Positions 42,870 to 54,131 of a stretch of 64,000 bases of DNA are shown in pieces. This DNA is from a phage: the sequence record PZ445473.1; one strand, written 5' to 3'. The notes below the pieces were generated by a model. That model did not search any database. It had not been told where the DNA came from and saw only the letters and a program-made list of their open reading frames with translations. Made by a program: the position numbers and the translations under genes. Each line of letters opens with the position of its first letter. Within the stretch, counting starts at the first letter, position 1.

Positions 42870-44063
42870 TTAGTAGTTTACAACAGTACCATCATTCAGG
42901 GTAATGCTATTAATCTGCAACACACGACCAAGCTGACGATTACTGATTGGTGCGTTCCATCCAGAACGGTAGAAGTTACGACCGCAGAAGAACAAGATCA
43001 CATTACTTGCTACAATTGAACCATTCTCAGGGTGCTTAATGTTAGCGATATAATAACCACGACGAAGATTGCGACGGGTGATTGGAGTGATCTCTAACCC
43101 TTGCTCTTCAACTTGCATTGTTTCAGGAACAGGTTCCGAAGACTCTTCAGCAACTGGCTCAGCTGTCAATGCAGAGTTCTCATCACCTGCCGATTCAGCA
43201 GATTCTTCCACTTCTTCAACAGGCAGTTCGTAAGCAACACGGTAGTTAGGCTCAACTCCAGAGAAGCTCTTAACAAATTCAACGATGTTATGAGTGTAAG
43301 TTTCCAGAGTTGTACCAGTCAGGCCCGGAGCTGTATTGACTTCCAGAACCCAAGCGTTAGTTCCTTTACTGATCAGGTCAACAGCACCGAAGTTTAAACC
43401 TAGAGCAGATACAGCTTTGTGAGCTTGAATCAGAACTTGATCAGGAGGAGCTTCAGTGAATGCGTTAGAGTAAACCCAACCAGTGTGATGGTTACGAATA
43501 TCTTCACGATAGCTTTCCAGTTCACGATAACCGTTACGACGGATTTTCTTCTGAACGTAAGTGATAACGCCTTCGAACACATGAACACGCCACTCACGAC
43601 GTGGGCCTTGAATACCACGGGTATAGAGAGGGGCGGGAGCTATACCTTCACCTGGAAGACGAACAGTGATACCTTCTCCAGAATGACCATTCAAAATAGC
43701 ACGTTCATAAACAATACTATCCAGATTCCATTCTGACGCCTGAGCAGCACGGATTGAGTACTCTACAGTGGATACCCCAGCAGCTTCCAGAGTTTGAAAT
43801 GCTGTGATTTTGTTAGCCGCTCGGTTCAGAGCTTCAACAGGATTCAGTACAGTTGCACCACCAAAGAAAGAAGCATCATAACGACGGTTGCCATAGTTTA
43901 TAACAATATCACCAGTACGAGAACGATAACGAGAACCCTCTGATACCAGAGACATTACGTTAGCATTTAAGCGAAGTTCCTGAACCTTAGTATTGATTGC
44001 AGAAGTAAGTTCACGAACTGAATCAGAAGGGCCATAAGGAAGAACACGGATACGAGTAGTCAT
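42870..44063 (-). CDS. ATP-grasp fold enzyme
   Basis: GAVDLISKGTNAWVLEVNTAPGL matches the ATP-grasp C-terminal G.D.....VLEVN..PG motif. Confidence 0.55.
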   Translation of the reverse strand: MTTRIRVLPYGPSDSVRELTSAINTKVQELRLNANVMSLVSEGSRYRSRTGDIVINYGNRRYDASFFGGATVLNPVEALNRAANKITAFQTLEAAGVSTVEYSIRAAQASEWNLDSIVYERAILNGHSGEGITVRLPGEGIAPAPLYTRGIQGPRREWRVHVFEGVITYVQKKIRRNGYRELESYREDIRNHHTGWVYSNAFTEAPPDQVLIQAHKAVSALGLNFGAVDLISKGTNAWVLEVNTAPGLTGTTLETYTHNIVEFVKSFSGVEPNYRVAYELPVEEVEESAESAGDENSALTAEPVAEESSEPVPETMQVEEQGLEITPITRRNLRRGYYIANIKHPENGSIVASNVILFFCGRNFYRSGWNAPISNRQLGRVLQINSITLNDGTVVNY

Positions 44064-44508: not shown

Positions 44509-46539
44509 TTAACCTCTATTCAATGAACATTTAGGAGAATTACAATAAACTTGATTCATAGAACCAAGCGTACAACTTTCAGCATCGCGCCACGGAATCT
44601 GCTTAAAACACCCTGAGCAGTAGCCGAGGGTTGACCACATTGCTTTGGTGAAGTCAGTGCTTCGGTTTCCGTCGAAGCTGACAACAGTTTTTCGGAGAGC
44701 TGTTCGTGATTCAGGAAACACACCTGCTTTCTCAGCAGGTTCCTCCTTTTTTGGCTTAGTTGAGATTGCAAAAATACTGTTGCTACGTTTCTCAACATAA
44801 GCATCAACAACATCCTCCAGAGTAATGCCTGTCTGTTTCGCTGAGGAAGGTAATATAGTCATACGACCAATCATATCTTCAGTTACACGTAAAGCAAATT
44901 CAGGACGACGGGAGTTTGTTGTATCTGTTGCTTTAATCCAGACATAACCATCTTTGATCGTAGCATTAGATACTTTCTTCTTTATATCTACAGCGCAGAC
45001 TTTACAGATATCTTCACCACGAAGACGACTGAGTTCATCATCAAACTCGTTCTCTGTTTTAACTTCACCACAGATTTCACAAACACCAATAGGAGTTTCC
45101 TCCTCTTCTTCATCTTTAGGCTTAGTCAAACCTTCCAGACATTCAGGGTGCCAGTAGCATTGATATGCGAAGACTGCTTTAGGTGCATCCTTCCAATCAA
45201 TGTGTTTATCACAACCGCCACAATCACCATGAGAATGTGCTTCCCAGAATTTACGAGTGATAGTAACGCCATTCTTGTTGACGAAACTATCATTCATATC
45301 AAAAGGGATATCATCATCAAAGTCAGCAGTAGTTGACTCAGGCTCCTTTTTCTCCAGAGATGGGTCAACAAAACGACCTGCTGTGATCACTAAACGAACC
45401 ATAGCATTAACTTCGGAGATACAGGATACTGTCCCACGGTAAACAATTTTAGGGTCTTTCAGGGCATCCTGATAAGCCTTAATGTCTACGTTATGAACAT
45501 CACCTTCGATATACTCTTGAGATTTCTCATCGTAGATATAACCAATCATCTTACCACGAGAAGGAACAGCACCAGCAGTTGCATAAGGGACAAACTCATG
45601 TGGTGTGATCTCCACAGTCATGTCGCGGCGAATGTCAATGTTTCGATCGCTTGCGATTTTGTTTTGACTTACCACTGCGTTTCTTCGACGAACGTCTGCC
45701 GCTGTCACTCCCGGCTTCGTGTCGTAAGGATTGCTTGTACTGCTTTTTGAGGAACTTTGATAGTTGCTTTGGCTGTAGTTGTTCGAGTAGTAATTGCCCC
45801 AACGATTGATTACCGTAAAAACCGGAAGCTCGTGGGCGACCTCTTCAACTAGAGTCATGCTGTTGTTTGACACATCAAAGATGTATTCTGTACCAACTTT
45901 ACATTCAAAGTGCTCATCAATGCGATTCTTGTGAGACCTAGAACGCTTCAGAATCCACATCAACATATCTTCTTCAGAAGCACCAAACCAATCTCTGTTA
46001 CAACGTGCAAGATGGAAAGGACGCTCTTCATTACGGATGATATGAAGACGATTATCAGAAGCATCATGCCAGATTAAGGTGAAAGCACCATCCAGCTTTT
46101 GAATAGTCTCTGCTGCACCAATAGTGTTAATAGAGTGGCAGATGTTTTCACTGTCTACCTCGAAGTTTTTACTGTCAGGTAACAGGTCTTGGTTCATCAA
46201 GGTTCCGTTATGAACCAGAGTGATGTTACCGTGTTGGAAAGGATGGGCGTTCTTGGCGTTAACTGCACCTTTCGTTGCATGACGGCTGTGACCAACAATC
46301 CATGAAGGTGCTACAGTGTAAGCTGTTTCACCAGTGGTGTGCTTCTTGTACTCATCTTGAAGGATGAATGCGAAAGAAGGAAGTGCCTCTTTATAAGTGA
46401 AGACTTCTTTAGTGCTTTTACGCTGACCAAAGATACCAGAGGAGTGCTGTCCTCGGAATACTCCAGCATAAAAGAGTTGGTTAAATATATCTAAATCAGT
46501 GCTTGACAGATTACCGCCAGCTAATACGATGCCACAAAT
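44509..46539 (-). CDS. class II (Ntn) glutamine amidotransferase-domain protein with Cys-rich C-terminal region; apparent AUU start
   Basis: Frame is open upstream of the track start to 46539; encodes (I)CGIVLAGG...RGQHSSGIFG...GHSRHATKG...NAHPF...LVHNGT; Cys codon 46534-46536 is preceded by ATT and a TAG stop, with AGGTGG 8 nt upstream. Confidence 0.55.
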   Translation of the reverse strand: MCGIVLAGGNLSSTDLDIFNQLFYAGVFRGQHSSGIFGQRKSTKEVFTYKEALPSFAFILQDEYKKHTTGETAYTVAPSWIVGHSRHATKGAVNAKNAHPFQHGNITLVHNGTLMNQDLLPDSKNFEVDSENICHSINTIGAAETIQKLDGAFTLIWHDASDNRLHIIRNEERPFHLARCNRDWFGASEEDMLMWILKRSRSHKNRIDEHFECKVGTEYIFDVSNNSMTLVEEVAHELPVFTVINRWGNYYSNNYSQSNYQSSSKSSTSNPYDTKPGVTAADVRRRNAVVSQNKIASDRNIDIRRDMTVEITPHEFVPYATAGAVPSRGKMIGYIYDEKSQEYIEGDVHNVDIKAYQDALKDPKIVYRGTVSCISEVNAMVRLVITAGRFVDPSLEKKEPESTTADFDDDIPFDMNDSFVNKNGVTITRKFWEAHSHGDCGGCDKHIDWKDAPKAVFAYQCYWHPECLEGLTKPKDEEEEETPIGVCEICGEVKTENEFDDELSRLRGEDICKVCAVDIKKKVSNATIKDGYVWIKATDTTNSRRPEFALRVTEDMIGRMTILPSSAKQTGITLEDVVDAYVEKRSNSIFAISTKPKKEEPAEKAGVFPESRTALRKTVVSFDGNRSTDFTKAMWSTLGYCSGCFKQIPWRDAESCTLGSMNQVYCNSPKCSLNRG

Positions 46540-46618
46540 TTTCTAATCCACCTGAAGGGTAAACCCTTTCATCTAATTAACCTTTAAATTGTGCCCCTTC
46601 GTCAGAGGCACCCATTGA

Positions 46619-47722
46619 TTACAGCGCTTGCTCTAACTGATTTTCCAGATGATCTGGAATATATCCTGTGATGTTGTTATCACTGTGTCCTGACTCACGT
46701 AGCAAGTCAAAAATAGCACGGATACGCTGTTCTGATGCAGATCGTACAGTAGATAGGTCAGTTGTACGAAGCATAACCAGAATTTCTTGGTACAAGTTGT
46801 TAGCGTTCCCTCGAATATACCCAAGGAACCCATAGAAGTCTGGAATAAGACGTAAGTCAACAAGAACTTCTCCGTTGGAGTCGGTTCGACGTAAACGAAT
46901 ACGACCAGACTGCTCTACTTCATGAGAACGACAATACAAAACATCACGGGCCATACAATACCCTGAATGCAAATCCGATTCGTCCAGATTGTAATCCAGA
47001 GGAAGATAAGGAAGCATTGGGGCAAATCGTACAGTATTTAAATGCTCAATAAACTGGTCATTGCTCATCTCTGCGTTATCTAAAGCCAGCTTCTTCAACA
47101 TTAAGAAGCGGTTAACCAGATTGAGAAGTTGACCACGTTTCCACTTAGGCTCGCTGATACGAAACTCAATTGAGCCGTATTGGGCAAGTGGCAGAAGGTT
47201 CAGAGATGTATACTTATCCCATGAACGAACCAGACGGTTGAAGAACTCTTCACCGTCGTAGTTAAATGCGTCAGAGGCGTTCATTACCTGTGCTTGTACC
47301 ACTGCGAAAGCAGGGCAGAAGTTGCTACGGTAACGATGATAGCCTGAACACTTGAACAACATTTTTTCATAGAAGGTCCAAGCGAGGATGGTTTTCTTGA
47401 GGATATTACTATCAGCATCCCTCATATCCATATGAACGTGAGTAGAGCAACGCCAAGTCCCCTCGGCGTGCGATTCAGCTACTGCTTCACTCAGGTTGTT
47501 GATAGCGTCTAACAACTCCTGTCCATTGTAAGGTCGTGAACATACCATTTCACAACCATTACGCAGGGAACCATCCTCTGTACAATCCCACATATCTGCT
47601 TCAATATGGTCGGAACCTTCGAGTTCTAGTTCGATACCGATACCGCACTGAAGTGCAATTGAACTATGCGCCTCAGTTAAACGACCTTCTCGGTATCCAA
47701 AAGTTTGCGCTACAGTTGTCAT
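46619..47722 (-). CDS. glutamine synthetase-like amidoligase (Amidoligase_2-like)
   Basis: GIGIELELEG...EDGSL..GCEMVCSRP and THVHMD resemble amidoligase family motifs. Confidence 0.4.
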   Translation of the reverse strand: MTTVAQTFGYREGRLTEAHSSIALQCGIGIELELEGSDHIEADMWDCTEDGSLRNGCEMVCSRPYNGQELLDAINNLSEAVAESHAEGTWRCSTHVHMDMRDADSNILKKTILAWTFYEKMLFKCSGYHRYRSNFCPAFAVVQAQVMNASDAFNYDGEEFFNRLVRSWDKYTSLNLLPLAQYGSIEFRISEPKWKRGQLLNLVNRFLMLKKLALDNAEMSNDQFIEHLNTVRFAPMLPYLPLDYNLDESDLHSGYCMARDVLYCRSHEVEQSGRIRLRRTDSNGEVLVDLRLIPDFYGFLGYIRGNANNLYQEILVMLRTTDLSTVRSASEQRIRAIFDLLRESGHSDNNITGYIPDHLENQLEQAL

Positions 47723-48345: not shown

Positions 48346-49152
48346 TTATGCTACCTGAAGGCGTTTAATCTGCTGGTCCGCTTCTTTAACGTTATTACCG
48401 TTAATGATTTCATGAAGCTTCTCAATCGGAAGGCGAGAGTGCAATGCCATCAGAGTGGACATGTCACACTGCTGAACAACCTTGTCAACCTGATCATAAA
48501 CAAACTTACGGTTTTCACGATCACTAATCCAGAAGTTAGACAGGGAACGATATTCAATACCATAGTCCTTGTAGCGGATTGCAGATGCTTTACCGTAGAG
48601 TTCTTTACGGCGAGTGTCTTTATCCATAATAACTGCTGGGAGGGATAGGAAGTAGTCACACAGCACACCCAGCATCATCTGAGTTTGCAGGGTGATATCC
48701 AAAGCACCAACTACGCCAAGATGTACGTGACCACCGGCAGTACGAAGCCCCTTATTTTGAGAAGTCGGGGATGGGTTCTTCTGACCAGTGAAAGCGTTGA
48801 AATCAGGAGTACATCCAAAGATGAACGCTGATTCATTGAAAGTCTTCATCTCTTCTTCAGTGAAGATGTGAGAGCTAACACCCGGAGCTGTTTCCATGTC
48901 CAGTTTGTTCAGGACATTATTGGTGAGATCGATACCACGTTGCATGTTGTCATTAAACGCTTCAAAACCACTCTGTGGGTCAATATCAAACTCAGCCAGT
49001 ACGTTGTCCTCTTGAAGACGAACATCCTTAGCCAGAGCGATCTTATCGTCCTTAGAACAACCTAACAGACCAGCTACAGAAGTGATGATTCCTTTGCTGG
49101 TACGAACGAACATTTCCGGATCCGATCCTATTAAGAATTTGCGCTTAGTCAT
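48346..49152 (-). CDS. hypothetical protein, possible second COOH-NH2 ligase-type enzyme
   Basis: FLIGSDPEMFV and GGHVHLGV loosely resemble ligase E..E/H.H motifs. Confidence 0.35.
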   Translation of the reverse strand: MTKRKFLIGSDPEMFVRTSKGIITSVAGLLGCSKDDKIALAKDVRLQEDNVLAEFDIDPQSGFEAFNDNMQRGIDLTNNVLNKLDMETAPGVSSHIFTEEEMKTFNESAFIFGCTPDFNAFTGQKNPSPTSQNKGLRTAGGHVHLGVVGALDITLQTQMMLGVLCDYFLSLPAVIMDKDTRRKELYGKASAIRYKDYGIEYRSLSNFWISDRENRKFVYDQVDKVVQQCDMSTLMALHSRLPIEKLHEIINGNNVKEADQQIKRLQVA

Positions 49153-54056: not shown

Positions 54057-54131
54057 TGGCGTTCCCTCGTGGAATCGAACCACGAATAAGAGCTTAGAAG
54101 GCTCCAGTTATATCCGTTTAACTAAGGGAAC
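54057..54131 (-). tRNA. tRNA-Arg (anticodon UCU)
   Basis: Hand-folded cloverleaf: acceptor GTTCCCT/AGGGAAC, D stem GTTA/TAAC, anticodon stem GGAGC/GCTCT, loop CTTCTAA, T arm CGTGG-TTCGATT-CCACG, discriminator G, CCA. Confidence 0.8.

Follow-up and report, generated by a model that had tools for sequence, protein, structure and literature searches.

AUU as the probable initiation codon of a class-II glutamine amidotransferase gene in phiEco32-like coliphages

The stretch of DNA analyzed here, referred to as the window, comprises 64,000 nucleotides (sequence record PZ445473.1) and is 100% identical to Escherichia phage JacquesWildberger_Bas92 (PQ850610.1), a phiEco32-like podovirus and coliphage of the Gordonclarkvirinae. 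Its minus strand carries a gene for a glutamine amidotransferase, whose coding sequence of 676 codons plus stop (44509-46539) was identified by Pfam and by a match to phrog_4736 (5e-202) and has the same coordinates in the Bas92 GenBank entry. Counted from 46542, the reading frame runs uninterrupted for 677 codons until the stop at 44509-44511. Its first ATG, GTG or TTG is a TTG at 46198-46200, 114 codons after an in-frame TAG, which leaves 113 open codons upstream. Among the open reading frames (ORFs) of the window with 150 codons or more, no other one has 40 or more open codons ahead of its first canonical start. The TTG is the start chosen by automatic gene callers, and a product beginning there would be without the catalytic cysteine (Cys1) and R28, along with the greater part of the active site.

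Read along the minus strand, the region consists of ATG (46572-46570), AAA GGG TTT ACC CTT CAG GTG GAT, TAG (46545-46543), AAA (46542-46540), ATT (46539-46537), TGT (46536-46534) and GGC ATC GTA. The TAG closes the frame two codons before the TGT, which encodes the catalytic nucleophile. This cysteine is the second residue as synthesized and becomes the first once the methionine is excised. A sequence-only reading of the window had proposed that translation starts at the intervening AUU, named this the sole candidate codon and held that initiation must immediately precede the cysteine. All of its coordinates proved correct when sequence and frames were re-read. AUU is indeed the sole candidate, since the TAG leaves AAA and ATT only, and would be decoded by formylmethionyl-tRNA (fMet-tRNA). 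The third proposition does not stand as a general rule, because propeptide-processed enzymes of the N-terminal nucleophile (Ntn) type exist, but it holds here because of the in-frame TAG upstream. A Shine-Dalgarno (SD) sequence, AGGTGG (46548-46553), lies 8 nt upstream of the ATT; its duplex with the anti-SD amounts to -5.9 kcal/mol at an aligned spacing of 8, the modal spacing of homologs with ATT or ATC starts. Note that AUUUGU also holds an out-of-frame canonical UUG (46537-46535), which opens an 8-codon ORF (MWHRISWR*, 46511-46537, minus strand) and could compete with AUU for ribosomes on the same SD.

The N-terminal part of the protein, about 250 amino acids, forms a class-II (Ntn) glutamine amidotransferase domain with Pfam matches above the family thresholds for both GATase_6 (3e-15; 56.7 bits, cut-off 27) and GATase_7 (6e-7; 30 bits, cut-off 25). 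The C-terminal part of about 420 amino acids gave no Pfam match, and no SIS, PRTase or synthetase domain was found in the 676 residues. Several CxxC pairs are present in the C-terminal region (e.g., CGGC...CYWHPEC, CEIC...CKVC and CSGC...CNSPKC). When a profile built from 13 phage homologs, down to 28% identity, was matched to solved structures, it hit those of GFAT/GlmS, PurF and AsnB with E-values down to 1e-9. The cysteine at profile position 2 fell on residue 1 of 1ecb (Escherichia coli PurF), 1ao0 (Bacillus subtilis PurF), 6czf, 1gph and 7ndl (GFAT), and 'mC' of the profile aligned with 'MC' of 6r4h and 4amv. This cysteine is invariant in 13/13 profile homologs and in 127/127 homolog representatives, as are R28, G29, H83, R85, N110 and G111 in the latter set. 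The motifs HSRHAT, VHNG and VDSE, invariant in the 13 homologs and in at least 126 of the 127 representatives, align with GlmS 1xff and contain the equivalents of its residues R73, N98, G99 and D123. A single-sequence AlphaFold model was too low in confidence (pLDDT 31.6) for a reading of the fold. Since the profile puts the cysteine on residue 1 of PurF and GFAT and the glutamine-site residues are kept, the assumption of an N-terminal catalytic cysteine made from the sequence alone was right, and by these alignments the phage cysteine is the N-terminal nucleophile of a class-II amidotransferase. The product name 'L-glutamine-D-fructose-6-phosphate aminotransferase' (GenBank and PHROGs, after GlmS) is over-specific and unsupported, as Pfam detects the GATase domain only and no SIS domain.

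The 113 codons ahead of the TTG were compared with those of related phages. Against Suseptimavirus and Nieuwekanaalvirus, the proportion of changed synonymous sites (pS) is 0.61-0.74 and thus saturated, that of changed non-synonymous sites (pN) is 0.13-0.16, and the ratio of non-synonymous to synonymous rates (dN/dS) is about 0.06-0.12; against phiEco32, dN/dS is 0.02. Judged by these comparisons, strong purifying selection acts on the stretch ahead of the TTG, as expected of translated codons. The start codon itself is equally stable. The 72-nt leader plus start is kept at about 90% identity or more in 99/99 phage records that hold the region, 69 of them at 100%, 28 at 95-99% (one or two mismatches) and two, both from Aeromonas phages, at about 90%. 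ATT was present in 35/35 fetched loci with a kuravirus-type leader (GenBank, IMG/VR and metagenomes), occurs in all 13 distinct leader sequences of this type and is invariant in every relative that has one. Comparison of orthologs, which the sequence-only reading had suggested as a check, therefore speaks for a conserved ATT. Taken together, the TAG, the cysteine alignment, purifying selection and the fixation of ATT support the proposal that the AUU directly before the catalytic cysteine is the start, and no other reading fits all of them.

The ATT start call as such is not new. It is present in the GenBank/RefSeq annotations of phiEco32 (phi32_83), LAMP, Bas86, Bas89 and Bas92. Truncated internal starts (ATG or GTG) are annotated in Paul, ECBP2, SU7, KBNP1711, BUCT695 and YF01, and the annotated internal starts vary by phage, being ATG, GTG or TTG at codons 12, 27, 47 or 114-116. 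Annotation of the start is, in all, inconsistent, as noted for the loci L003, L005, L006, L007, L012 and L206 (L-numbers are the labels of the homologous loci collected in this work) and SU10. In a proteomic study of phage SU10 the protein was detected with nine peptides, the model searched being a truncated protein of 63.8 kDa (PMC4281155); because of this choice of model the peptides are uninformative on the start. Literature searches on ATT/AUU starts in phages, Kuravirus or amidotransferases returned no paper discussing this start.

The ATT is the last codon of an invariant 49-nt core, AAAGGTTAATTAGATGAAAGGGTTTACCCTTCAGGTGGATTAGAAAATT, that comprises leader and start codon (46537-46585, minus strand). 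In an alignment of eight phages this core shows no substitution across Kuravirus, Suseptimavirus and Nieuwekanaalvirus. Of the adjoining 113 third-codon positions, 54-64 differ against Suseptimavirus and Nieuwekanaalvirus, and 61-74% of the synonymous sites are changed. The leader and its sub-motifs occur once in the window; no second copy was found. Just outside the core, after the stop of the upstream amidoligase gene, lies a terminator-like hairpin lacking a T-run, HP1 (GTGCCTCT-GACGA-AGGGGCAC, 46591-46611, minus strand). Its arms change compensatorily between genera (GTGCC..GGCAC vs GCGC..GCGC), and its 5-nt loop is hypervariable, with five variants among kuraviruses of more than 95% identity, which provides an internal control for the leader. 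A second hairpin, HP2 (AAGGG-TTTA-CCCTT, 46555-46568, minus strand), is situated directly 5' of the SD. The core further contains a putative upstream ORF (uORF) of nine codons, MKGFTLQVD* (46543-46572, minus strand). It is in frame with the enzyme, is preceded by AAAGG 8 nt before its ATG and ends at the in-frame TAG, with 3 nt left to the AUU. All Gordonclarkvirinae have it in unchanged form.

Outside this group, related leaders occur in L139, L195 and BUCT695. Locus L195 carries a diverged kuravirus-like leader, in which the stem of HP2 is one A-T pair longer. Aeromonas phage BUCT695 (L012) belongs to a different phage family; its protein, of 52% identity, groups with ATG-type homologs from Grimontviridae. 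The locus is chimeric (positions 900-1010), in that a protein of the ATG-type group is combined with a leader, an ATT and initial codons of the kuravirus type. The BUCT695 leader has only 2 changes, HP2 being kept with a loop change only (TTTA to TTAA), whereas wobble positions are altered in 3 of the 8 codons that follow. This arrangement suggests that the leader module was exchanged between phage families. Since the next codons differ at wobble positions while the leader is nearly identical, the comparison argues for constraint or module transfer and not for a very recent wholesale transfer. The in-frame TAG is kept in kuraviruses, BUCT695, L139 and L195, in the last as TAG TAA. A further shared element was seen in ATG-start relatives (L010, L011, L015, L021 and L022) and BUCT695, which have TTAAATGTAA(A/T) about 20-25 nt upstream of the start where kuraviruses carry TTTAAAGGTTAAT. 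The former resembles the phiEco32 gp36 promoter consensus tAATGTAtA (PMC8948821).

Several candidate explanations of the leader were rejected. A repeated promoter or PeSL-like motif does not apply to a sequence that occurs once in the window, and a scan for sigma-70 promoters found nothing on the coding strand. Neither does a phiEco32 gp36 promoter, as the mapped ones precede genes 6, 13, 26, 40, 58 and 68, not gene 83. All Rfam matches were far below the gathering score, which speaks against a known RNA family, and a stable fold is not the cause of the invariance either, with z-scores of -0.7 to +0.3 for short leader segments; the z-score of -2.3 for a 126-nt segment is mostly owing to HP1. 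In phage YF01 (L206, 3396-3902) a gene for an HNH endonuclease, absent in Bas92, directly follows the amidotransferase stop. A target site of such an endonuclease was dismissed as the reason for leader conservation, because the gene follows the amidotransferase stop and is not located at the leader. The uORF, finally, is no general feature, as it is not conserved beyond the Gordonclarkvirinae and BUCT695.

To place the AUU in a wider context, homologous loci were gathered from IMG/VR, metagenomes and GTDB genomes. As sampling used internal protein motifs, the census is blind to the start codon. After de-duplication at about 90% identity, 128 clusters remained, in which the codon before the cysteine is ATG in 93, ATT in 19, ATC in 7, TTG in 8 and GTG in 1, so that ATT and ATC together account for about 20%. 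All 26 clusters with ATT or ATC are intact ORFs with the catalytic residues, and 23 of them have no in-frame ATG, GTG or TTG between the upstream stop and the cysteine; in L101 a TAA, and in L195 a stop codon, stands directly before the ATT. These genes are scattered over the neighbour-joining tree, often beside ATG genes, and ATT/ATC starts persist when clustering is relaxed to 60% identity (21/98 clusters) or 45% (14/50). At least nine types of leader, unrelated in sequence, can be told apart among them. The aligned SD spacing is 8 in 17/26 ATT/ATC clusters and is spread over 3-11 in ATG genes. The near-absence of GTG (1/128), beside 26 AUU/AUC (AUY) and 8 TTG starts, fits selection for weak starts.

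Start codons also change within the family, either inside one leader or together with it. L070 and L185 have ATC and ATT, respectively, within one leader. The pairs L102/L107 and L181/L174 have near-identical coding sequences from the cysteine on and wholly different leaders, with ATG in one member and ATT in the other, and the ATT members of both pairs share the cassette GAAAGGTAGGAACCYAAA-ATT. On the strength of these sequence pairs, we therefore conclude that leader and start codon are exchanged as a unit at the cysteine junction. Five of the collected loci (L192-L195 and L201) come from scaffolds of less than 1 kb in a bacterial genome assembly, Herbiconiux daphne (NZ_JANLCJ01), and hold at least four different phage-type amidotransferase homologs with TTG, GTG or ATT starts; these scaffolds are probably phage DNA contamination.

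The start codon is also related to the distance from the preceding gene. The median gap to the upstream ORF is 2 nt for ATG genes, which usually abut or overlap it, 18 nt for TTG genes and 56 nt for ATT/ATC genes. A hairpin just 5' of the SD was present in 22/26 ATT/ATC and 19/92 ATG loci (p = 4e-9). This raw association is largely confounded, because AUY genes follow a spacer while ATG genes abut the upstream ORF. For loci with spacers of 35-150 nt only, the numbers were 13/14 and 5/12 (Fisher p = 0.009; Mann-Whitney not significant), and we consider a specific pairing of the hairpin with AUY starts suggestive only. What can be stated firmly is that ATG versions tend to translational coupling with the upstream gene, whereas AUY versions stand alone, separated from it by a spacer that contains a hairpin.

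Initiation at AUU itself is a known kind of event. In E. coli, the confirmed AUU genes are infC and pcnB only (PMC5499595, 10.1101/063800). With infC, the textbook case of an AUU or AUC start, the phage gene has several features in common: in both genes the AUU is conserved across orthologs, AUU and AUC are both used and an SD precedes the start (PMC5499595), and in both an upstream frame stops 3 nt before the AUU, the sequences being UAA GGU AUU in thrS-infC and UAG AAA AUU in the phage (PMC3592434). Unlike infC, the phage gene does not encode initiation factor IF3, and there is hence no autoregulatory loop. It is also phage-borne, its upstream frame is a nine-codon uORF rather than a full gene, and its leader is invariant over 49 nt. 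With pcnB, the gene for poly(A) polymerase I, it shares a weak AUU start in front of an enzyme of which, presumably, little is needed. The two genes are unrelated, however. In pcnB the AUU limits the enzyme level.

At the protein level, the phage enzyme has in common with GlmS/GFAT, PurF and AsnB the N-terminal cysteine nucleophile and the glutamine-site residues R, N-G and D, but differs from them in lacking an SIS, PRTase or synthetase domain. Cellular class-II members and 73% of the phage homologs start with ATG-TGY, in contrast to the AUU of the Bas92 gene. In B. subtilis PurF, Cys1 is exposed by propeptide removal. Both this enzyme and the phage protein need a free alpha-amine on Cys1; unlike the B. 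subtilis frame, that of the phage is interrupted by the TAG at 46545-46543 and offers no open frame for a propeptide. The genomic surroundings are those of the phiEco32-type cluster of ATP-grasp protein, GATase, Amidoligase_2 protein, a protein of unknown function and COOH-NH2 ligase (PF14395, PF12224). All members assigned here by Pfam and PHROGs lie on the minus strand. The upstream neighbour is an Amidoligase_2 protein (46619-47722), the stop codon of which is 79 nt before the ATT, the downstream member an ATP-grasp (RimK-like) ligase (42870-44063), and a phiEco32-like COOH-NH2 ligase type 2 is encoded at 48346-49152. A phiEco32-type gene cluster for amidoligase, ATP-grasp and GAT-II proteins was reportedly described by Iyer et al. 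in 2009.

We consider it very probable that the gene encodes a class-II glutamine amidotransferase whose translation starts at the AUU at 46539-46537. A 30S subunit would be held by AGGUGG, 8 nt upstream of the AUU, with which the initiator fMet-tRNA would pair imperfectly. Deformylase and methionine aminopeptidase would then strip the fMet, making the cysteine residue 1 with a free alpha-amino group. The in-frame TAG would block ribosomes in that frame from making an N-terminally extended, inactive enzyme. As IF3 discriminates against AUU, the output may be expected to be a small fraction of the AUG level and inverse to IF3 activity. In E. coli reporters, starts at AUU or AUC yield about 1-2% of the AUG level and a product with N-terminal methionine (10.1101/063800), and they reach higher levels in other constructs (PMC3592434, PMC5499595). 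The gene infC uses exactly AUU or AUC across bacteria and is repressed by IF3 (PMC5499595), and excess IF3 represses non-canonical starts (PMC2268962). By analogy with these systems, IF3-discriminated, low-level initiation is the most likely mechanism, and the 'regulated low-level initiation' raised in the sequence-only reading is plausible. The likely purpose would be to limit or tune the amount of an enzyme that hydrolyses glutamine in relation to the other products of the operon, and with about a fifth of the related phage genes likewise starting at AUU or AUC, the AUU is probably a deliberate means to this end.

A number of points weigh against this interpretation. IF3 dependence and low output are extrapolated from reporter work in E. 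coli, the SD is of moderate strength only (-5.9 kcal/mol), and phylogenetic non-independence inflates the statistics of the census. The N-terminus at the AUU is predicted from sequence. Moreover, 49 invariant nucleotides exceed the needs of an SD and a start codon, and a further factor acts on the leader. Such a factor might be a trans-acting regulator, either a small RNA or a protein of phage or host origin, for which the leader would be the binding site and the AUU part of a translational operator. We judge this rather unlikely, even though none of the 49 nucleotides is substituted at saturating synonymous divergence, the HP1 loop varying even among phages that are more than 95% identical, and even though the leader of BUCT695 is so little changed beside a protein of 52% identity and wobble changes in the next codons. 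Furthermore, the predicted structure of the leader is thermodynamically unremarkable, so that folding alone fails to explain the constraint. On the other hand, the proposal names no regulator and has no Rfam match, the single copy of the motif in the window makes no regulon visible, and the other ATT/ATC lineages have unrelated leaders. A different role for the leader would be coupling, in which the nine-codon uORF is translated, HP2 is melted and, after the stop at UAG, the retained 30S subunit reinitiates at the AUU with the help of the SD inside the uORF. This would refine and not replace the explanation given above. The uORF is in frame, has its own AAAGG, is invariant in the Gordonclarkvirinae and shares the stop-3 nt-AUU geometry of thrS-infC, in which reinitiation accounts for roughly as much as de novo initiation (PMC3592434). 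However, L195 has CTG in place of the uORF start, L139 has no such start, BUCT695 lacks the upstream AAAGG, no comparable uORF exists in other ATT/ATC lineages, and both substitutions in the BUCT695 uORF are non-synonymous, leaving no sign of selection on the peptide. Coupling of the uORF to the AUU is thus possible, not established, and reinitiation as the major route to the AUU is in our view unlikely.

The remaining alternatives dispute the start itself. If translation began at the AUG of the uORF and read through the UAG, the product MKGFTLQVD-X-KI-Cys... would carry a 12-residue propeptide that is removed autocatalytically, as in B. subtilis PurF. The uORF does share the frame of the enzyme, and propeptide processing is known in the superfamily, the B. 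subtilis PurF structure 1ao0 beginning at the cysteine. Nevertheless, this is very improbable: the window contains no suppressor tRNA, its sole tRNA gene being that for tRNA-Arg(TCT) (54057-54131, minus strand), two consecutive in-frame stops would have to be passed in L195, L101 has its TAA directly before the ATT, most other ATT/ATC lineages are without any upstream in-frame ATG, and SD spacing is anchored on the ATT/ATC and not on an upstream codon. Even less can be said for a product with an internal canonical start, such as the TTG at 46200, and with the 5' 113 codons untranslated or a decaying remnant. Automatic gene callers pick such starts, and the annotations of several depositors imply a truncated product, but the chosen codons differ among phages, dN/dS is 0.02-0.12 over exactly these 113 codons, and it is they that hold the invariant Cys1, R28, G29, H83, R85, N110 and G111, which makes this reading extremely improbable. 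The sequence-only reading had itself considered a sequencing error. An error in sequencing or assembly, with ATG as the true codon, has nothing but the rarity of ATT starts to recommend it and is refuted by the fixation of ATT in about 100 independently sequenced genomes; the same ATT is found in 99 phage records as well as in metagenome contigs, and other parts of the family contribute eighteen more ATT/ATC clusters, so that its probability is virtually nil.

Going further, one may speculate that phage Ntn amidotransferase genes have repeatedly recruited an initiation cassette, composed of a hairpin, a strong SD, about 7 nt and AUU or AUC, and swap it through recombination at the cysteine codon. 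Such a cassette would couple enzyme synthesis to the IF3 and ribosome status of the host and so report the translational state of the cell to the phage, and in the phiEco32 lineage it would have grown into a 49-nt operator, invariant despite saturating divergence, with a regulator or a thrS-infC-like uORF. As a whole, we regard this scenario as quite improbable.

The findings have consequences for annotation. Gene callers cut off the active site of this enzyme in many genome entries (Paul, ECBP2, SU7, KBNP1711, BUCT695, YF01 and SU10), which leads to proteomic searches with the wrong protein model, and the 'GlmS-like' product name is misleading. An automated rescue rule would be possible, based on a match to an Ntn domain, an open frame back to X-TGY-GG and an SD ahead of it. 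The invariant leader, the AUU/AUC frequency of about 20% and the swapping of cassettes appear to be undescribed. The 49-nt leader is a compact candidate for a translational control element in a phage group of the BASEL collection. With AUU fixed in a coliphage gene and about one fifth of the phage family having AUU or AUC right before the catalytic cysteine, this family is a naturally replicated setting in which to ask what favours non-canonical starts.

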